NCBI RefSeq assembly: GCF_004102945.1
Contig: NZ_CP019384.1
Span: 1,830,001 to 1,862,000 of the forward strand
Direction of reading: 5' to 3'
Length of the DNA stretch: 32,000 bases
Origin: Candidatus Velamenicoccus archaeovorus
GTDB taxonomy: Bacteria; Omnitrophota; Gorgyraeia; Velamenicoccales; Velamenicoccaceae
In this document: positions 16,381 to 32,000 of the stretch, one piece after another
Layout of the letters: every line of letters starts with the position of its first letter
Position numbering within the stretch: the stretch's first letter is position 1
The notes under the pieces: model-generated
What the model was told of the DNA's origin: nothing
Seen by the model: the letters and a program-made list of their open reading frames with translations, nothing else
The model's database searches: none
Position numbers and translations under genes: made by a program

Positions 16381-16563
16381 TTAATTTTTATTTCTCCATT
16401 GTTTCCGATCCTTTTCAATCAGGTCCCGGATAATTGATATAATGGACGCGCTTTTATTTTGTTTTTGTAACTCAAGAGCTTTTTCTTTCAGGAAGAAATA
16501 CTGCTCCTCGCTAATTTCAATAGTCGTCTTTTTCATGTTGGTTTTGCCTATTTGCCGGTTCAT
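16381..16563 (-). CDS. Small ribbon-helix-helix (CopG/Arc-like) protein, putative
   Basis: 60 aa. KKTTIEISEEQYFFLKEKALE...ASIISIIRDLIEK fits a beta-strand plus two helices. An alternative start is M10 (16536). It ends 16 nt before the HEAT-fusion gene. Confidence 0.45.
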   Translation of the reverse strand: MNRQIGKTNMKKTTIEISEEQYFFLKEKALELQKQNKSASIISIIRDLIEKDRKQWRNKN

Positions 16564-16566
16564 CTA

Positions 16567-16617
16567 TTTTGTGCTCCAATCGCTATATCCCTTTATTTAT
16601 AGCAATATAGCACAAAA
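16567..16617. promoter_or_regulatory. Imperfect inverted repeat upstream of the RHH gene
   Basis: TTTTGTGC (16567-16574) and GCTATAT (16582-16588) pair with the contiguous ATATAGCACAAAA (16605-16617). The left arm carries a 7-nt insertion. Confidence 0.3.
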
Positions 16618-25568: not shown

Positions 25569-25684
25569 ATCAAACCCAGCAGTACTCTGTTTATTCCTTA
25601 AAATAAAATTTCCGTAGCTATCCATGTATATGCCCGTGGAACTCACAGCAGGTATTGGGCTTTCTTTACTACGACTATTTCTTT

Positions 25685-25951
25685 TTATAAAACCGACTCC
25701 TGCAATTTTCCGGTCATGACATCCAGCATCTGAAAATGCGTAACGCCCGCATCCTTCCACTGCTGTTCGATCGTGATCGACCATTTACCCAGCGGCATGA
25801 CCCGCTGGATCTCCCGCAGACGCAACTTTGCGGCCGGAAGATGATCCCGCATCCGGCCCGACACCGGAATGTTTTCGACGTACGTCTCCTCGCCGCCGTT
25901 CCTGACGCTGATATACCGCGTCTTTTTTGCCGTCATGTTTTCACGAACCAT
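25685..25951 (-). CDS. Hypothetical protein
   Basis: The ORF-track ORF is 25685..25984. The start was moved to ATG 25951 (MVRENMTAKKTRYISV...), which has AAGGAGG 8 nt upstream. No family recognised. Confidence 0.5.
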   Translation of the reverse strand: MVRENMTAKKTRYISVRNGGEETYVENIPVSGRMRDHLPAAKLRLREIQRVMPLGKWSITIEQQWKDAGVTHFQMLDVMTGKLQESVL

Positions 25952-26013
25952 AATCATCCCCTCCTTTCGAGGGTATAGGGCCATACGGTTTAATAGTTGG
26001 CAAGGCCTTTGTC

Positions 26014-26346
26014 TTAGAAATCTACCCGCACCCCGGCCTTGGCTCCGACCCCTTTTCGGTCATCGGATTCAGCGAAACCGTACCCCTCGACAAACGGATG
26101 AACCTCAAGCCCGGACTTCTTCTCTTCGCGCTTTTGATCAATAGTGACCTGCGCACCGGGCTGGGCGATGATATGCGTTTCCTGCTTCGTGGTTTGAGTC
26201 GGCATGAAGAAAGCCTTATAGATCGTCAATCCGATAAGCCCGATCGCCGCGATCCCGATCGCGTAACGCGCGGTCTTGACCCACGGCAACCACTGAACAA
26301 AACTTCCCAAAAACTTAAGGATGCTAAATCTTTCGTTTTCCGCCAT
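26014..26346 (-). CDS. Hypothetical membrane protein (one TM)
   Basis: 110 aa with TM segment ARYAIGIAAIGLIGLTIYKAFF. Its start overlaps the preceding small ORF. Confidence 0.55.
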   Translation of the reverse strand: MAENERFSILKFLGSFVQWLPWVKTARYAIGIAAIGLIGLTIYKAFFMPTQTTKQETHIIAQPGAQVTIDQKREEKKSGLEVHPFVEGYGFAESDDRKGVGAKAGVRVDF

Positions 26347-26443
26347 CCTGCACCTTGCCTTTTAACCACAAATAAAAGAACATCCCCAATCCCCCAACCA
26401 CCGCGCCCAGCGCGAAGGCAATAACCAGCTTGATCGTAATCAT
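26324..26443 (-). CDS. Unannotated 39-aa single-TM peptide
   Basis: Below the ORF-track cutoff. Hand translation: MITIKLVIAFALGAVVGGLGMFFYLWLKGKVQDGGKRKI. Its ATG (26443-26441) overlaps the TGA (26442-26440) of the upstream gene. Its 3' end overlaps the next gene by 23 nt. Confidence 0.45.
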   Translation of the reverse strand: MITIKLVIAFALGAVVGGLGMFFYLWLKGKVQDGGKRKI

Positions 26444-26712
26444 TGCGCCACCCCTTTCTTTAAGTCCTTCCTCAGCTCATCAATCGCCTTGATGATCCGG
26501 TCGTTCTCCTTTTCGATAAACCGGCTCTGCATATCGAACTCGGCCTTGGACACATACAAGGCCCGCGGCATGTGAATCTCGTCATTCGCCAGATGATGAA
26601 ACAGTTTCTCATCGATGCGGTTGACCTGCGTAATGATCGTGCCGAGCATGAAAATAACGATCGTCACCAATACCGGCGTGATGAACCTTGTCCAGTTTCC
26701 TTCACTCTTCAT
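26440..26712 (-). CDS. Hypothetical membrane-anchored coiled-coil protein
   Basis: Start trimmed to ATG 26712 (MKSEGNWTRFITPVLVTIVIFMLGTIITQV...), 4 nt after the stop of the upstream 59-aa ORF. One TM plus a helical C-terminus. Confidence 0.6.
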   Translation of the reverse strand: MKSEGNWTRFITPVLVTIVIFMLGTIITQVNRIDEKLFHHLANDEIHMPRALYVSKAEFDMQSRFIEKENDRIIKAIDELRKDLKKGVAQ

Positions 26713-26716
26713 AAAC

Positions 26717-26896
26717 CTATCCGATCTTCTTGATGTCATCATCGATGAGCGCGATCTGCTCATCGATCTTCTCCCTGCGCTTCACAAACATCTGCTTCGC
26801 AGTAGTTAAACTTTCCTTCGAATGCTCCCGCTTTTCGCCGGAAGGATACGTCACAATCTTCTTGCCGTCTTTGAATTCAATTGTAGGTTTTGCCAT
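26717..26896 (-). CDS. Unannotated 59-aa hypothetical protein
   Basis: Below the ORF-track cutoff. Hand translation: MAKPTIEFKDGKKIVTYPSGEKREHSKESLTTAKQMFVKRREKIDEQIALIDDDIKKIG. Strong RBS AAGGAGGA 6 nt upstream. Confidence 0.55.
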   Translation of the reverse strand: MAKPTIEFKDGKKIVTYPSGEKREHSKESLTTAKQMFVKRREKIDEQIALIDDDIKKIG

Positions 26897-26911
26897 TTGA
26901 AATCCTCCTTT

Positions 26912-27463
26912 TTATGCCTGCCCGCCGCGAACCGGCAGAACGTAACACATATCCCAAGGTCTGCCCCATGTCGTTTTGTACCCGTCATACGGATACATAC
27001 ACCACGCACCATCTGTCCAAGATACACAAACAGTTGAAGACCAATATGGCGTCCACATATCAGGCATAGGGGTAAAAACCATCGGATCAAACGCAGGGCT
27101 GTATCTTGAATGATCCACAATCGACATCAACTCATTAATATTCGGCATGCGCCAATCGTCATGCCCTGCAAAGAAAAGATTCTCACATGCATTAATCGCG
27201 TCATACCAGTACATCGTCATTCCAAACCCGGCCATCTGCAAATCCTTGACCCACATAAGGCCGGTCACGGTATCGACTACCGTCCCGTCACCGTTATCAA
27301 TAAACCTTTGACCTCCGCCAAGCGGATACCCCATCTGGTAATAGCCGTCATCACCCATCTGATAACTCATCATCTGCCCGGTTTTCGGCAGACCGCCATT
27401 CGTGACGATTTCATTGACCCGGGTGATGATCCGGTTCTTTTTCTGGTGTTTAATATGATCCAT
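26912..27463 (-). CDS. DUF1566 (Lcl C-terminal-like) domain protein
   Basis: 183 aa. TGLMWVKD...MTMYWYDAINACENLFFAGHDDWRMPNINELMSIV matches the DUF1566 pattern. RBS AAAGGAGGG. Confidence 0.8.
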   Translation of the reverse strand: MDHIKHQKKNRIITRVNEIVTNGGLPKTGQMMSYQMGDDGYYQMGYPLGGGQRFIDNGDGTVVDTVTGLMWVKDLQMAGFGMTMYWYDAINACENLFFAGHDDWRMPNINELMSIVDHSRYSPAFDPMVFTPMPDMWTPYWSSTVCVSWTDGAWCMYPYDGYKTTWGRPWDMCYVLPVRGGQA

Positions 27464-27477
27464 TTTGCGCCCTCCTT

Positions 27478-27768
27478 TTAACCTTCGTAAGTGACCGTAA
27501 TTTTTCCGTCATCATCGCCCGCCTTTATCACTCTAAAATCCTTGATGTGATAAATCGACGGAAGCTCAACGATATCGCCCTCCTCCAAAAGCACGCCCGA
27601 TGCCGCGCTCGGATTCTGGCCGTTGACGAAATATCGCATGTCACCGCCCTCGGCCGTAATCATCGCAAACGATGCCGAAACCCCGTTGCCCGGGTTATAA
27701 ACCGCCGGGGTCAATGCCACGGCCATACCACTGACCACAATTTCTTCATGATTGATAACTTTTGCCAT
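27478..27768 (-). CDS. Hypothetical 96-aa protein
   Basis: RBS AAGGAGGGA. Beta-rich sequence with no family recognised. Tightly packed between the rSAM and DUF1566 genes. Confidence 0.65.
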   Translation of the reverse strand: MAKVINHEEIVVSGMAVALTPAVYNPGNGVSASFAMITAEGGDMRYFVNGQNPSAASGVLLEEGDIVELPSIYHIKDFRVIKAGDDDGKITVTYEG

Positions 27769-27780
27769 TGCCGTCCCTCC

Positions 27781-28944
27781 TTATGTTTTCTTTAACGCTT
27801 CCAAGATTTCCTCGTTCTGTTTGGCCACATCCACCAAGACCTGCCCGACTGTGAAAAGCATGCGCTCCCGCCTGTCCGCCAGCTCGACCGGCAGAAAGCC
27901 CAGCGCCTGCTCGCTTTCGACCGCACATATCCGGCAGTATTTCGTAACCGGAACAGTCAGCTCCTGATTGACCTTGTAGTGCGTGATCACGCAACTGTGG
28001 CAGGTCCGAGCGTGCGGGCAGTTTTTCCAGCATCCGGTGTACTCCTTGTCGATATTGAGGAATATTCCGCGGATAAACGGTCGCACCTCGAAGATATTCC
28101 CCAGCTTAAATATTCGCGCGCTCGCCGCCCTGTGGCATGGATAAACGTCGCCGTTCTCCAGAACCGCGATATAGGTCTTGCCCGCCTGACAGTATTCCTT
28201 CTCCGGCGGCACCTCATCATTGACGATCTTGAGCGGTTTATCGATAAACGCAATCTCGATCGGCAGGCCCTGCCGCTTGCAGTACCGGCGATAGTGATAA
28301 ATCTGCGTCAGTTGATAACGGTATTGCTCGACCGCATCCTGAGTCCAATCCTCTTCCATGACCGCGTGATGCATGATCTTCGTAATGCCCAGCTCGTGCA
28401 GGTACTGCACGTTGATCGCCAACCGCCCGACCGTCTTGGGCGTAAACGTCATCCGAACACTCATATCCGGTTTGATGGCCAGAATTTTCTTTATGTTTTC
28501 GATAATGCGCGGATAGTCGCCGTGCCGGTATTCGGTATGCGTGATCTCATCGCCGTCACAACTGACCTGAACTGCCATTCCCAGCTCGGCAAATTTCTTG
28601 AACACCGTCTCATCGAAATACATGCCGTTTGTTGATATCGAAAAGGTCGAGGTGTGCCGCCCGTCTTTATCCGGCGACCACAGCTCCCGGGCATAAAGAG
28701 CCAGCTCCAAAACTGTCTGTGGATACAGAAGCGGCTCACCGCCGAAGAACGTTATCTGCAGGCCCGCAGGGCTTATTTCCTTCATCCGGGCAAGAATCTT
28801 CTTTCCCTGCTCGACCGACAGCACCGCCTCACCCTTAGGATGAAAACAGTAATCGCATTTCATGTTGCACTGTTCAGTGATGAACAGATCGATGCTCTTT
28901 ATTTCGTCTTTGGATTTGCCGCCGACCAATTCCGCGTTAGACAT
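27781..28944 (-). CDS. Radical SAM/SPASM domain protein (third of three)
   Basis: CX3CX2C as EQCNMKCDYCFH; GGEPLL. C-terminal SPASM-type Cys clusters (CQAGKTYIAVLENGDVYPC; GCWKNCPHARTCHSC; YCRIC). The ORF-track start 28989 is TTG. ATG 28944 (MSNAELVGG) with GGGAGAAAG upstream is used here. Confidence 0.9.
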   Translation of the reverse strand: MSNAELVGGKSKDEIKSIDLFITEQCNMKCDYCFHPKGEAVLSVEQGKKILARMKEISPAGLQITFFGGEPLLYPQTVLELALYARELWSPDKDGRHTSTFSISTNGMYFDETVFKKFAELGMAVQVSCDGDEITHTEYRHGDYPRIIENIKKILAIKPDMSVRMTFTPKTVGRLAINVQYLHELGITKIMHHAVMEEDWTQDAVEQYRYQLTQIYHYRRYCKRQGLPIEIAFIDKPLKIVNDEVPPEKEYCQAGKTYIAVLENGDVYPCHRAASARIFKLGNIFEVRPFIRGIFLNIDKEYTGCWKNCPHARTCHSCVITHYKVNQELTVPVTKYCRICAVESEQALGFLPVELADRRERMLFTVGQVLVDVAKQNEEILEALKKT

Positions 28945-30022
28945 GAACTTTCTCCCGTTTCTCTTTTTCCAATTGGATATATTTATCAATGACCTTGGCC
29001 AGAACCTTGTTCATGGCGCAGTAGCCCGGCTCGGGCTTTAACATGTCACCCATATGCTCAAGGTTAAGGCCCAGACATTTATTGCGCGGGCACCGCTTGT
29101 ACAGCTCGCAACTCTCGCAAAATCTGCCCAGATACTTCTCGCGGCTCTCATCGATCTCCCAAACGTAATCCAGCTTCGAATAATCGATGCCGTCATAAAC
29201 CGATCCCAGCCGGTTATGCCTGCAGATGTACATGTTGTCGCACTGCCAGATACCGCCTTCGGTATCGATAAAAATCCGCTCAAGGCCCGTCCGGCAAAAG
29301 TGAAACTCTCGTACCTGCGCCTTAAGCCCGAACTCCCGCACATAGGCGTTGCTGTGAAGAGCCGGATTAAGCGTCTGAAAAAGCTCCGCGTCTTTTTCGT
29401 GCTCGATAAGAAGTTCGAAATACTGCGCCGCGAACCTCTCCAAATCCTCTTGGCTGTGATCGTGTCGGGTTGCAAGGTCGATCGTGATATTGCGGGTGAT
29501 ATTCCGCGCGATAAAATCAAAATCCTCTTTCAGTTTCCCGTATTCAACGACCATGAAATTGACGTTATGGTTCGGGTTTTCTCTTACCAGCTTCAGCATC
29601 CACGGCTCTGCCTCGGCCTTCCAATGAGGCCCGCCGTATTTCTCATAGCAATTTCCGAACGACCATGTGATCCCGATGTTGCGATGCCGCGCGAAAAACT
29701 CATACATCCGCTCATCAATCAATGCGCCATTGGTGTTCATGTGAAACAGCATCTGCGGGAACCTCTCCATCACATGCCGGATGACCTCGAAATTCACCGT
29801 CGGCTCGCCTCCCCAAAAGTAGATCGTGAATTTGGGTGCCAGCTGAAGTTTTGAGAAACAAAAGTCCAGAATATCGTCCGCGGTCTGTTTCGACATCTTC
29901 ACCGGCCCGAGCGTCGATACCTTGTGCCTCTCGAACAAACCTCTGCGGTAACAGAACGAACAATTCGCATTGCACGCGTGCGTGAGATATAAATAAACCG
30001 ATTTATAGAGAGGGATCCTCAT
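28937..30022 (-). CDS. Radical SAM/SPASM domain protein (second of three)
   Basis: 361 aa. CX3CX2C as HACNANCSFCY; GGEPT. SPASM Cys clusters (FCRTGLERIFIDTEGGIWQC; CESCELYKRCPRNKC; YCAMN). ATGA overlap with the upstream rSAM gene. Confidence 0.9.
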   Translation of the reverse strand: MRIPLYKSVYLYLTHACNANCSFCYRRGLFERHKVSTLGPVKMSKQTADDILDFCFSKLQLAPKFTIYFWGGEPTVNFEVIRHVMERFPQMLFHMNTNGALIDERMYEFFARHRNIGITWSFGNCYEKYGGPHWKAEAEPWMLKLVRENPNHNVNFMVVEYGKLKEDFDFIARNITRNITIDLATRHDHSQEDLERFAAQYFELLIEHEKDAELFQTLNPALHSNAYVREFGLKAQVREFHFCRTGLERIFIDTEGGIWQCDNMYICRHNRLGSVYDGIDYSKLDYVWEIDESREKYLGRFCESCELYKRCPRNKCLGLNLEHMGDMLKPEPGYCAMNKVLAKVIDKYIQLEKEKREKVHV

Positions 30023-31242
30023 TTGCGCACCGCCCCCTTGTGATACAGCACGTCGATACCGGTCTCGATCGCCTTCTTGGCGATGTATTCATATGTGGCC
30101 GTTTCAATCCGGTTCGCCCAGCAGTGATTCGCCGCCGGTTTCAATGGATTGCCGGTCACGGTGTAATTCTCAGCCAAGCACATTGCCCGCGGGCAACAGC
30201 GGATATCGCCGTCAAAACAAACCTCGCAATCCCTGCAATGCTCGTAAAGCTCATCGATCCAATCGCCCATCTTTTTGAAAAAGAATGCCGTATCGTTAAA
30301 CCCGCTCCACACATCCCCGATCTTGAACTCCGGATAATTGGCAAAAAAATCGCACGGGTATATCTCGCCCTTGTTATTCACAGCCAGATACAGATACCCG
30401 CACCCGCAAAACGTGGGCGGCACGTCCTTGAGCGCGATACCTTTCAACTTGCGATAAATGTTGTTTTTTAACGCAATATCCCATTGACTCCGTCCGAACT
30501 TCGGCTTGCCTGAAAAGTAAACGTAATCCGCAACGCGCCTAAACAAGTCCTTGAACTGCTCGTTCTTGTCCCTGACCATATCCCAATGCCGGGCCGAGGA
30601 TATCCGCACCACTGGCACACCGTATTCATAAAGCCTGATAATCTCCTCATAGATCCCCGGCCGCTCCGAATCATCGACCACATAATGAACGTCTCCGCCG
30701 TTGGCCTTCACAAGATCAAGCACCTCTCCTGCCTTATCCAGATATCCCTCTCCCAGAACGCCGCGCAAAGCCGATATGCTGACGCTCAAATTGAGGTGGT
30801 ATTTATGCCTCAAAACCCATTCCCGAATGCCCGGATCATTCAAAAGAACCAACCCGTTTGTTGTCACCACATAGCGGTACATGCAATAGGTATCGCAAAG
30901 GTACTGCACCATTGGAAAATTCAAGAACGGCTCACCGCCGAATATACTGAACTTGACGCGCCTCTCATCGAACGTGCGTGAGGCCCAGTCCTCGGCCGCA
31001 TCAATAACATCCCGCGTGATCCCGCTGTCCTTCTGCCTGAATTCCTTGGGCTGATAGCAATAAGCACAGCGCAGATTGCAGTCCTGCGTCATCAGAAAAT
31101 AAACCGTGGTGTATTCCTGCTTGCCGTCCGTTATCGAACCGATATCGAACATTCCCTCGGCCTTGTACCGCTTGATCACCTCACGGCACTGTAACGGCAA
31201 ATCGCCGCACGCCTTGCTATTCTTAAGCTCAAATACCGGCAT
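30019..31242 (-). CDS. Radical SAM/SPASM domain protein (first of three)
   Basis: 407 aa. CX3CX2C as QDCNLRCAYCY; GGEPFL. SPASM Cys clusters (FCGCGYLYLAVNNKGEIYPC; CRDCEVCFDGDIRCCPRAMC; HCW). RBS GGAGGA. It overlaps the upstream gene by 14 nt. Confidence 0.9.
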   Translation of the reverse strand: MPVFELKNSKACGDLPLQCREVIKRYKAEGMFDIGSITDGKQEYTTVYFLMTQDCNLRCAYCYQPKEFRQKDSGITRDVIDAAEDWASRTFDERRVKFSIFGGEPFLNFPMVQYLCDTYCMYRYVVTTNGLVLLNDPGIREWVLRHKYHLNLSVSISALRGVLGEGYLDKAGEVLDLVKANGGDVHYVVDDSERPGIYEEIIRLYEYGVPVVRISSARHWDMVRDKNEQFKDLFRRVADYVYFSGKPKFGRSQWDIALKNNIYRKLKGIALKDVPPTFCGCGYLYLAVNNKGEIYPCDFFANYPEFKIGDVWSGFNDTAFFFKKMGDWIDELYEHCRDCEVCFDGDIRCCPRAMCLAENYTVTGNPLKPAANHCWANRIETATYEYIAKKAIETGIDVLYHKGAVRK

Positions 31243-31624
31243 TAATCCTCCAGTCCAGCTTGCTTAAGCCCGGCTCGATCTCCTCGATATCCAGCCCAAG
31301 CCTGTCTTTGAAGACCGTGCGATGCGTATCATTAAGCGCAACTACATGCGAGGCATAAATCTTGTCCCTGTGCTTCCCAGCCAGAAACAAAACAAACGCC
31401 GAAATATTGCCCTTGTCGCCCTCGACTCCCAGCTCCTGATAAACCTCGCATAGCGCATCTATGAGCGCTTGAACGCTCATGAACCGCTTATGCGTGAAAC
31501 ATTGAACGGTCAATTCATCGAGATTATTCCTGCACCAGTTAACCAGCTCGCTGACGGCGTTCTCGCCTTCCAGCCGCGCGATCCTGAACGATACTTCCTG
31601 TGCCTTTACCTGATCCTGAAACAT
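31229..31624 (-). CDS. Hypothetical 131-aa protein between the Cys-rich gene and the rSAM genes
   Basis: The ORF-track ORF (31229..31747) was trimmed to ATG 31624 (MFQDQVKAQEVSFRIARLEG...), which has GAGGA upstream and lies 4 nt after the stop of the Cys-rich ORF. No family recognised. Confidence 0.6.
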   Translation of the reverse strand: MFQDQVKAQEVSFRIARLEGENAVSELVNWCRNNLDELTVQCFTHKRFMSVQALIDALCEVYQELGVEGDKGNISAFVLFLAGKHRDKIYASHVVALNDTHRTVFKDRLGLDIEEIEPGLSKLDWRINAGI

Positions 31625-31628
31625 TTCC

Positions 31629-32000
31629 TCACCATGAATAAGGGTTACATTTACAATTCCACGCGCTATGGTTATGCCCGCCCGAATACTCGCACGTCCC
31701 CCAGTTCGATCCCGGCGGCGTATATACACACCAGTCCCACGGCACATAGCCGTCCCAAGCCACTGTCGACAACGGATTGCCGGATGCCGACTTGTACGGA
31801 TGCTCTGTTACCGAAGGCAAGTTGATGCTGGCGCAAATCCAGTAATGATTGATCGAGTGGTGGCATTCCGAATATTTATGGTCATCGCACGCCACGCCCG
31901 CGTGAGAACAGGTCGTATAGTGATATCCGCAGTCCGCGCAATACTGGCACTGCTCAGTTTCACAGATACAGCCGGTCATGAGCGCCTGAACTTTCTGCAT
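31629..32000 (-). CDS. Cys/Trp/His/Tyr-rich protein or peptide (candidate rSAM substrate); N-terminus at or beyond the window edge
   Basis: 123 aa are visible. My count gives 13 Cys, 7 Trp, 9 His and 10 Tyr. It ends ...GGHNHSAWNCKCNPYSW and lies directly upstream of the rSAM genes on the same strand. The first in-frame codon at the window edge is ATG, but the true start cannot be verified. Confidence 0.65.
   Translation of the reverse strand: MQKVQALMTGCICETEQCQYCADCGYHYTTCSHAGVACDDHKYSECHHSINHYWICASINLPSVTEHPYKSASGNPLSTVAWDGYVPWDWCVYTPPGSNWGTCEYSGGHNHSAWNCKCNPYSW

Follow-up and report, generated by a model that had tools for sequence, protein, structure and literature searches.

The window analysed here is a 32,000-nucleotide stretch of the genome of Candidatus Velamenicoccus archaeovorus (contig NZ_CP019384.1, positions 1,830,001 to 1,862,000). 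Close to its end lie three adjacent genes for radical S-adenosylmethionine (rSAM) enzymes with SPASM domains, next to the gene of a cysteine-rich protein, in the tail-fibre region of a prophage. All coordinates are window positions (1-32,000). The three enzymes are called A, B and C, and L and P numbers stand for related loci and related proteins. The five genes at the centre of the analysis are:

31629..32000, minus strand: Cys-rich tail-fibre-like protein, C-terminal 123 of 245 aa; the start lies 366 nt past the window end
31229..31624, minus strand: p131, a 131-aa accessory protein with no family match
30019..31242, minus strand: rSAM/SPASM enzyme A, 407 aa
28937..30022, minus strand: rSAM/SPASM enzyme B, 361 aa, with the CX3CX2C motif at residues 17-24
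27781..28944, minus strand: rSAM/SPASM enzyme C, 387 aa from the ATG (402 aa from an upstream TTG)

An earlier note on this DNA had described a trio of rSAM genes (407, 361 and ~387 aa) with overlaps of 4 and 8 nt. The coordinates of the open reading frames (ORFs) agree with this description, as A and B share 4 nt (30019-30022) and B and C share 8 nt (28937-28944). The 387-aa form of C is backed by the gene calls on the JGI contig L001, which is 100% identical, and the start of B at the 4-nt overlap by the gene calls on L004-L006. An alternative 319-aa call for B on L001 would remove the cluster motif.

All three enzymes pass the gathering score of the Pfam family Radical_SAM (PF04055, 29.5 bits), with 31.7 bits for A, 32.6 for B and 61.1 for C. 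For the SPASM domain, C passes PF13186 (23.9 bits, cut-off 21.5), A passes TIGR04085 (32.5 bits, cut-off 27), and the support for B is its motif. The CX3CX2C motif is found at residue 55 in A, 17 in B and 26 in C, and GGEP, the GGE SAM-binding motif, at residues 102, 71 and 68, respectively. The SPASM signature CX9-15GX4C ... CX2CX5CX3C ... C stands for two auxiliary 4Fe-4S clusters. Each of the three enzymes carries such a signature, formed by CX13-17GX4C, a CX2-3CX5CX2-4C quartet and then a last Cys. Among orthologues of 31-57% identity, eight C-terminal Cys are invariant in A, seven in B and seven in C. A, B and C are thus members of the radical SAM superfamily and of its SPASM subgroup, and the motif scan confirms the CX3CX2C motif and the C-terminal SPASM-type Cys clusters that had been described for each enzyme.

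The enzymes had also been called paralogous but distinct. Judged by their pairwise identities of 18-24%, A, B and C are indeed true, distant paralogues. They represent three orthogroups whose order is kept across distant phages, with identities of 35-42% for A, 31-41% for B and 42-57% for C, the best conserved of the three. Because the three orthogroups persist in a fixed order, the roles of A, B and C are probably non-redundant. All three enzymes are intact.

The G+C content divides the window into blocks of ~53% (1-8 kb), ~40% (8-25.7 kb) and ~51% (25.7-32 kb). The 6.3 kb from 25,684 to 32,000 are 87-93% identical to at least 11 IMG/VR contigs of 34-38 kb, and two further viral contigs are 70-82% identical to this phage block. 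The viral contigs show which genes come upstream of the window end. The series runs from a tape-measure C-terminus through a gpM-like DUF2460 gene, Phage_tail_L and NlpC/P60 to J, a central tail fibre of 1205 aa (FNIII-A_GpJ, Phage-tail_3; phrog_31, 535 bits). J is followed by two small genes, a 163-174-aa fibre-like protein (no significant PDB match for the 163-aa form) and then the Cys-rich protein. The head genes, 10 kb further upstream, comprise a terminase of the gpA type, a portal of the lambda family, a capsid-E-like gene and a gene for a tail tube protein. The element also occurs in integrated form, on 320-820 kb contigs of metagenome-assembled genomes (MAGs) titled Candidatus Omnitrophota, and some of its host MAGs are labelled Planctomycetales by their depositors. 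The G+C content of the rSAM cassette equals that of the phage. The window flanks encode rubrerythrin, DsrE and a FeMo-cofactor-domain protein, and these genes together with the Omnitrophota hosts point to an anaerobic setting.

By gene content and similarity, the trio lies in the distal tail-fibre region of a lambda-like temperate siphovirus prophage of an uncultured anaerobe. The earlier note had considered the genes as a possible cluster for a ribosomally synthesised and post-translationally modified peptide (RiPP). The trio is not a free-standing RiPP cluster, but a cassette in the late/tail operon of a prophage, and the downstream genes that had seemed unusual simply complete the tail-fibre region and the end of the phage.

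The Cys- and aromatic-rich ORF pointed out upstream of the trio is Cys-rich as described. It is not complete, since the window edge cuts a 245-aa protein to its last 123 aa. The full-length gene is found at L001:1486-2223 and L009:6579-7316. The protein has a conserved MAHxLPPxQCSxNT start, its N-terminal half contains three (W/F)TDPxITxxxTxIRKxHxDELR repeats (TDP repeats), and its C-terminal half contains 13 Cys. In an alignment of 15 family members (36-80% identity), 11 Cys are invariant: C133, C135, C140, C143, C146, C153, C160, C168, C178, C238 and C240. The other invariant residues are E136, E138, G147, P209, W210, W222, W236 and P242. C92, D95, D145 (in at least 90% of the sequences) and Y150 are near-invariant. 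CxCExEQCxYCxDCGY is the core motif of the domain, and additional invariant Cys and Trp lie C-terminal to it.

The family is tiny. An exhaustive HMMER search gave 14 matches in 1.84e9 representatives, and ~11 of them are convincing. A word-indexed protein search with the 123-aa C-terminus returned no match, with identical proteins present in the collection, and the N-terminal repeat region gave just four. A negative from a word-indexed search is unreliable for Cys-rich sequences, and it was the exhaustive HMMER search that recovered the family.

A typical family member has 240-300 aa. One of them, P0130, terminates in an intramolecular chaperone of the Peptidase_S74 type (E 9e-14), a domain that has matches at the C-terminal ends of many tail-fibre PHROGs. 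A mini-variant in L230 has 141 aa and consists of the three N-terminal repeats and a 28-residue tail, CICDCDYCSHCSHSPCCTCDCDHFHQW. Its core is made of CxCD units. Three rSAM genes follow, and P0060 at this locus is a fused enzyme with 28% identity to A. Another variant, P0137, is accompanied by two rSAMs.

A further protein, P0138 (L232:1328-1927; 199 aa), combines a signal-peptide-like N-terminus and three TDP repeats with a different Cys-rich C-terminus. No rSAM gene is found beside it within the 3.9-kb contig L232. The repeat domain hence also exists outside the rSAM-linked family, and in P0138 it is possibly part of a secreted protein. A DsbA-like identity for the gene beside P0138 was considered and dropped, as it has no support from Pfam.

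The linkage between the enzymes and the Cys-rich protein was examined first from the side of the Cys-rich protein, whose relatives in collections of viral sequences, genomes and metagenomes are 31-100% identical to the query. Loci were evaluable when the sequence extended at least 1.2 kb beyond the gene for A, at least 3 kb for B and at least 4.2 kb for C. An A-type rSAM lies directly downstream of the Cys-rich gene in 106 out of 106 evaluable loci, two of which show a 3-nt overlap with the gene. For B the count is 74 of 77 evaluable loci, and for C it is 71 of 71. At the loci without A the contig ends within 454 nt of the gene, except for the P0138 type, which shares the N-terminal repeats only. 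Among the true family members with enough downstream sequence, none is without A. When the loci are clustered at 60% identity 25 clusters are obtained, and under a looser rule A is present in 18 of the 19 that are evaluable. The loci that do without B belong to the L019/L210/L211 lineage or are the two-rSAM variants L228 and L234.

Distant homologues of A (35-46% identity) again adjoin a Cys-rich protein. They are found in L018, with a myovirus-type baseplate (GPW_gp25), in L019, a siphovirus with PhageMin_Tail that has A and C only, in L020, which carries A, B and C, and in L228, with Baseplate_J. The gene order in L228 is different (fibre, A, C, Cys-rich protein), i.e. the linkage survives rearrangement. 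The cassette is found in at least four tail architectures, of both siphovirus (PhageMin_Tail) and myovirus type (GPW_gp25, Baseplate_J).

From these comparisons, the conserved unit consists of the Cys-rich protein, p131, A, in most cases B, and C. A 96-aa gene and a DUF1566 gene downstream of C, as well as the upstream genes, lie outside this unit, because they are swapped while the five-gene block stays. The earlier note had named the Cys-rich ORF as the candidate substrate of the trio. Comparative genomics strongly supports this choice, with an A-type neighbour at all 106 evaluable loci. The refuting condition set in that note, namely trio homologues that never adjoin such an ORF in other genomes, thus did not come true, and the evaluable Cys-rich loci gave no exception. 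The candidate is a 245-aa tail-fibre-like protein, and not the short precursor peptide that a RiPP system would imply.

The accessory protein p131 is encoded between the Cys-rich gene and A in all close and intermediate relatives, with identities of 31-93%, and its gene overlaps A by 14 nt. It corresponds to the ORF of 172 aa seen previously at this place, and the real start at 31624 reduces it to 131 aa. A hidden Markov model (HMM) of p131 weakly matches the genes right after C in L019 (E 1.2e-4) and L020 (E 0.024). The AlphaFold2 (AF2) model of p131 is poor (single sequence, pLDDT 43.5). The location of p131 is the usual place of fibre chaperones. From gene position we guess that it is possibly a fibre chaperone or a substrate-presenting partner, and it may have a role like that of a RiPP recognition element (RRE).

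Additional rSAM genes occur in some of the related phages. A fourth enzyme, 'D', is found at L018:15009-16142, L019:17961-19097 and L020:19502-20623. The three copies have 373-378 aa, are 59-66% mutually identical and have no SPASM match, and a GT2-like gene lies close to them, a few kb past the trio on its downstream side. In L231:867-2006 a MiaB-like gene (UPF0004 and Radical_SAM) is located between fibre-like genes. Some of these related phages thus encode four to five rSAM enzymes around their tail genes.

To describe what the enzymes resemble we compared them with curated family models and solved structures. The PapB model (NF047865) is the best curated match for all three, with 104.5 (A), 102 (B) and 167.1 bits (C) against a cut-off of 340. 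The nif11-like, CcpM, SCIFF, CXXX-repeat and QhpD models rank lower, and the anSME, DynA and cyclophane-forming models lower still. The SCIFF maturase model TIGR03974 gives 67.5, 41.2 and 107.1 bits for A, B and C (cut-off 425), and the QhpD model TIGR03906 gives 51.7, 63.7 and 61.1 bits (cut-off 453). QhpD membership is also not seen in the gene neighbourhood, where there are no QhpA, QhpB or QhpC genes and the neighbours are phage tail genes. None of the curated family cut-offs (PapB, SCIFF, QhpD, anSME and the other models) is reached by A, B or C. The assignment to rSAM/SPASM maturase-type enzymes stands, and so does the earlier statement that the set could not be assigned to a described RiPP class, as no curated class cut-off is passed.

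Among solved structures CteB (PDB 5WGG) is the best match for A and C, and for B it ties with 8vpo. Its scores across the three enzymes are 78, 60 and 38 bits (78.5 for C). The rSAM core and the SPASM region of CteB align, including the CX..GX4C motif, and for C the alignment extends across the SPASM motif. The alignments begin at CteB residues 91-95 (91 for A, 93 for C), corresponding to query residues 39 (A), 5 (B) and 12 (C), so that only 4-38 query residues precede them. Because the alignments begin after it, the N-terminal RRE of CteB has no counterpart in A, B or C.

The A family is sharply bounded. It forms 59 clusters that run from 95% down to 35% identity, and then the identity drops to 28% (112 bits). 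GenBank phage records contain no orthologue of the Cys-rich protein or of the enzymes. The best match to C among GenBank phages is MT835702, at the superfamily level (20-30%), and it was rejected as a relative. The matching gene is SCIFF-maturase-like, has 468 aa and an N-terminal extension, lies beside SecDF- and RecJ-like genes and looks bacterial. The locus (L235, MT835702.1:13369-21004) belongs to an unverified human-gut 'Bacteriophage sp.' scaffold, which reads as bacterial chromosome rather than phage.

Two other identities for the enzymes were rejected. For an anSME that acts on a sulfatase, the scores with TIGR03942 are 40.2 (A), 39.5 (B) and 66.6 bits (C) against 349, and no sulfatase was found. 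The scan for a sulfatase domain covered 10 phage-block and 10 host-flank (1-8 kb) proteins, with the ORFs at 8-25 kb outside it. For pVip, i.e. a role in defence, PADLOC gives partial matches only, from profile position 2 to ~110 of 257-262 with 21-61 bits, and SPASM is present.

Taking together the intact enzymes, the phage tail context, the strict linkage and the conserved Cys, Glu and Asp residues, we propose with moderate confidence that the five-gene block is a phage maturation cassette that puts thioether-type cross-links in a virion fibre protein. The fibre-like protein would be made in the cytoplasm of the anaerobic host during late gene expression. There A, B and C, non-redundant and without RRE, would act on its Cys-rich C-terminal domain and install several covalent cross-links, either intramolecular or between subunits. 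p131 might take part as fibre chaperone or as the partner that presents the substrate. The modified protein would then be built into the virion beside gpJ, where the cross-links may stabilise the extracellular Cys-rich fibre domain as disulfides do in oxic habitats. Such bonds would need no periplasmic step and would not be reducible in sulfidic, anoxic environments.

The bonds would most probably be thioethers from Cys sulfur to carbon, onto Asp, Glu or other residues, as formed by PapB, CteB and QhpD. Asp and Glu are suggested as partners because the best-scoring relatives PapB and QhpD form such thioethers, and because the invariant motif contains C133-x2-E136, C135-x2-E138, C92-x2-D95 and C143-x-D145. 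The 11 invariant Cys together with E136, E138, D145 and C92-x2-D95 would thus indicate the modification site. The fibre character of the protein is suggested by its place after gpJ and the 163-174-aa fibre-like gene, by its tail position in both sipho- and myo-type modules and by the S74 fusion in P0130. A simple scheme of one TDP repeat per rSAM was rejected, as the two-enzyme lineages L019 and L228 still hold three repeats. As a broader and more tentative idea, phages of anoxic habitats may build RiPP-type chemistry into the virion, with a fibre knotted by several non-reducible rSAM cross-links in place of disulfides and a five-gene cassette that moves horizontally between sipho- and myovirus tail modules.

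Several observations weigh against the proposed maturation of a fibre protein. L231 has an A and C pair (A is 42% identical) and fibre-like genes, and no member of the Cys-rich family on its 13.5-kb contig. Lineages without B keep all the invariant residues, which means that the assignment of enzymes to sites is not readable from the comparison, and with all family scores below their cut-offs the chemistry is not readable from homology. Neither Pfam nor PHROG nor the PDB contains a relative of the Cys-rich family (the PDB matches are non-significant), and the AF2 model of the domain, from a 13-sequence alignment, is unusable (pLDDT 34). The term 'tail fibre' comes from the position of the gene, a single S74 fusion and the neighbouring genes, and is to be read as a candidate assignment. 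The CX2CX2C...C spacing fits metal or Fe-S binding equally well. Finally, the Cys-rich domain is as conserved as the enzymes (79-80%; DUF1566 59-74%), unlike a hypervariable receptor-binding tip.

One alternative is that the block is a phage-carried, RiPP-like 'moron', in which the TDP repeats are the leader or recognition part and the Cys-rich C-terminus is the core of a toxin, signal or exclusion factor that is released or displayed and is no component of the virion. In lambda, with lom and bor, a classical moron site is also located just after gpJ. The cassette, however, has the G+C content of the phage and is translationally coupled within the fibre/baseplate genes, in at least four tail architectures. 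The L230 variant does resemble a leader of ~110 aa with a 28-residue Cys/Asp core and three rSAMs after it, but the typical product has 240-300 aa and one member is fused to the tail-fibre S74 chaperone. The nif11-like long-leader maturase model is second-best for A (90.7 bits), and a large structured leader could stand in for the RRE that the enzymes do not have. Against this, the conserved block contains no protease, transporter or immunity gene. Family scans of the conserved block find no RRE, PqqD, protease or transporter families, in agreement with what the earlier note had read from the ORFs, and the block is not a canonical RiPP cluster. We consider the 'moron' unlikely.

A second alternative keeps the substrate and changes the chemistry. 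The enzymes would then form C-C or C-O bonds onto Trp or Tyr (of the cyclophane, darobactin or streptide type), or catalyse epimerisation or formylglycine formation, or carry out a different reaction each. The last option fits the paralogue identities of 18-24%, and the invariant W210, W222 and W236 and the near-invariant Y150 that accompany the Cys could serve as aromatic partners. The weak matches to DynA (54 bits), YhhB (48), AmcB (44) and anSME (67) are, however, clearly exceeded by the thioether families (PapB, SCIFF and the CXXX-repeat model), and among solved structures CteB leads for A and C and shares the first place with 8vpo in the case of B. The density of invariant Cys beside invariant Glu and Asp is unusual and also argues for thioethers, and formylglycine is not favoured by the lack of a sulfatase among the phage-block and 1-8 kb flank proteins scanned. 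A chemistry other than thioether formation therefore appears improbable.

In a third alternative, which seems very doubtful, the Cys-rich domain is a metal or Fe-S fibre domain and no substrate, and the rSAMs act on another virion protein, on the host surface or cell wall, or on a nucleotide as an anti-defence or defence activity. In its favour, the CX2CX2CX6C spacing is like that of cluster-binding motifs, the lambda tail-tip protein gpL binds an Fe-S cluster and so gives a precedent for Fe-S in tails, A and C occur without the Cys-rich family in L231, and there are the partial pVip matches. These matches, however, reach no further than the first ~80-110 positions of the rSAM core, and all three enzymes have full SPASM domains of the kind usual in peptide/protein maturases. 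The enzymes have no other co-varying gene, as the 96-aa, DUF1566 and upstream genes are replaceable, and the linkage to the Cys-rich protein, found in 106 out of 106 loci, survives rearrangement.

The remaining part of the phage block, downstream of C, contains the following features:

27478..27768, minus strand: 96-aa protein, an optional module; no family or PDB match
26912..27463, minus strand: 183-aa DUF1566/Lcl_C protein (Pfam Lcl_C, 95.7 bits), an optional module
25685..26896, minus strand: small prophage-end genes for proteins of 59, 107 (N-terminal transmembrane segment, TM), ~39 (TM), 110 (TM) and 99 aa
~25,659-25,684: end of the homology to phage contigs, at the G+C junction (~51% to ~40%)

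The 96-aa protein is 46-97% identical in many relatives. In the L064/L065/L171/L172/L206 lineage the homology to the window ends at 27,788-27,791, in the last codons of C, and the 96-aa, DUF1566 and 59-aa genes are absent. Since some close relatives do without them, the 96-aa and DUF1566 genes do not belong to the rSAM system. The DUF1566 gene is the fastest-evolving of the block, with identities of 43-94% where its neighbours have ~90-97%, and it may be the actual host-range determinant. The differences between the DUF1566 proteins of the window and of L009 are mainly N-terminal. DUF1566 is a known target domain of diversity-generating retroelements (DGRs). The ORF lists of the window phage block and of L009 contain no large extra gene resembling a reverse transcriptase (RT); no search with RT families or for template and variable repeats (TR/VR) was made. 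The small prophage-end genes are kept in the viral contigs and have no family match.

Beyond the junction lies a 40%-GC region with TetR, TolC-like and RND-type efflux genes. No tRNA or Rfam element was found at the junction. Related prophages extend ~850 bp further, with three small genes and an HTH_17 excisionase-like gene. Because this end is missing, the prophage in the window is truncated or rearranged, or the contig is chimeric.

Past the prophage end and the HTH_17 gene the relatives differ in large non-phage genes (L009:14400-19122, L017:14177-17422, L065:14182-16681). By reading alone, the putative cargo of L009 is BREX-like, that of L017 a helicase-like protein of 1081 aa, and that of L065 a methyltransferase with a restriction-modification-like second enzyme. 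This suggests, from the sequences compared, a variable spot for defence cargo beyond the prophage end. A ~50-aa ORF in the window (16,386-16,608, minus strand; MKKTTIEISEEQYFFLKEKALELQ...), ribbon-helix-helix-like by reading, is found directly beyond the prophage end in L007, L011, L013, L046 and L173 at 68-80% nucleotide identity. In the window the efflux operon separates this ORF from the prophage end, at a distance of 9 kb.

In the literature searched we found no report that links rSAM/SPASM enzymes to tail fibres. To our knowledge, rSAM/SPASM maturases have been studied almost only on small peptides, and QhpD is a rare case with a protein subunit as substrate. If the proposed function is correct, it would be the first case in which enzymes install radical cross-links in a structural protein of a virus. 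It would add a new class of SPASM substrates, namely large, RRE-independent, trimeric proteins, and could explain how extracellular Cys-rich virion proteins are stable where disulfides cannot persist. The three sharply delimited enzyme families come with a genetically linked candidate substrate and make the proposal directly testable. They would also make phage-host recognition more accessible in Omnitrophota, a phylum that has no cultured hosts.

The block can be compared with known systems of two kinds, phage structural modules and rSAM maturases. Side tail-fibre and assembly-chaperone modules such as lambda stf/tfa and P2 H/G resemble it in their place after gpJ or the baseplate genes, in the small gene (here p131) right downstream of the fibre gene, and through the S74 fusion. 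Unlike in these modules, three rSAM genes are inserted, and no similarity to Stf, Tfa, H or G is detected. The capsid of HK97 is held together by an isopeptide chainmail. In the cyanophage Pam3, Cys-rich regions link the fibres to the baseplate by disulfides (PMC9942802). As a functional idea, the proposed cross-links are analogous to both, i.e. covalent bonds that reinforce or anchor virion proteins. The bonds in Pam3 and HK97 are spontaneous or autocatalytic (disulfide, isopeptide), whereas here dedicated radical enzymes would form bonds predicted to be non-reducible.

On the enzyme side, CteB and the SCIFF system differ from A, B and C by the N-terminal RRE and by a six-Cys substrate peptide of ~45 aa, where the candidate substrate here has 245 aa. 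PapB, of the freyrasin-type ranthipeptides, forms thioethers between Cys sulfur and side-chain carbons of Asp or Glu. The candidate substrate is like that of PapB in having invariant Glu and Asp beside invariant Cys. It differs in its size, 245 aa instead of a short peptide, and in its Cx2(D/E)-like spacings instead of CX3D repeats, and the locus is a phage tail operon without a protease or exporter. QhpD puts several thioethers from Cys to Asp or Glu into the Cys-rich QhpC, the gamma subunit of quinohemoprotein amine dehydrogenase. By analogy, the system described here would work most like QhpD-QhpC, as rSAM/SPASM maturation of a protein within a larger assembly rather than of a peptide natural product, and it would also resemble PapB and CteB in thioether formation. 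Unlike QhpD, it has three enzymes, is phage-encoded, and its proposed target is a virion fibre protein. What appears to be new is the phage setting for rSAM/SPASM protein maturation, with three enzyme orthogroups for one candidate substrate family.

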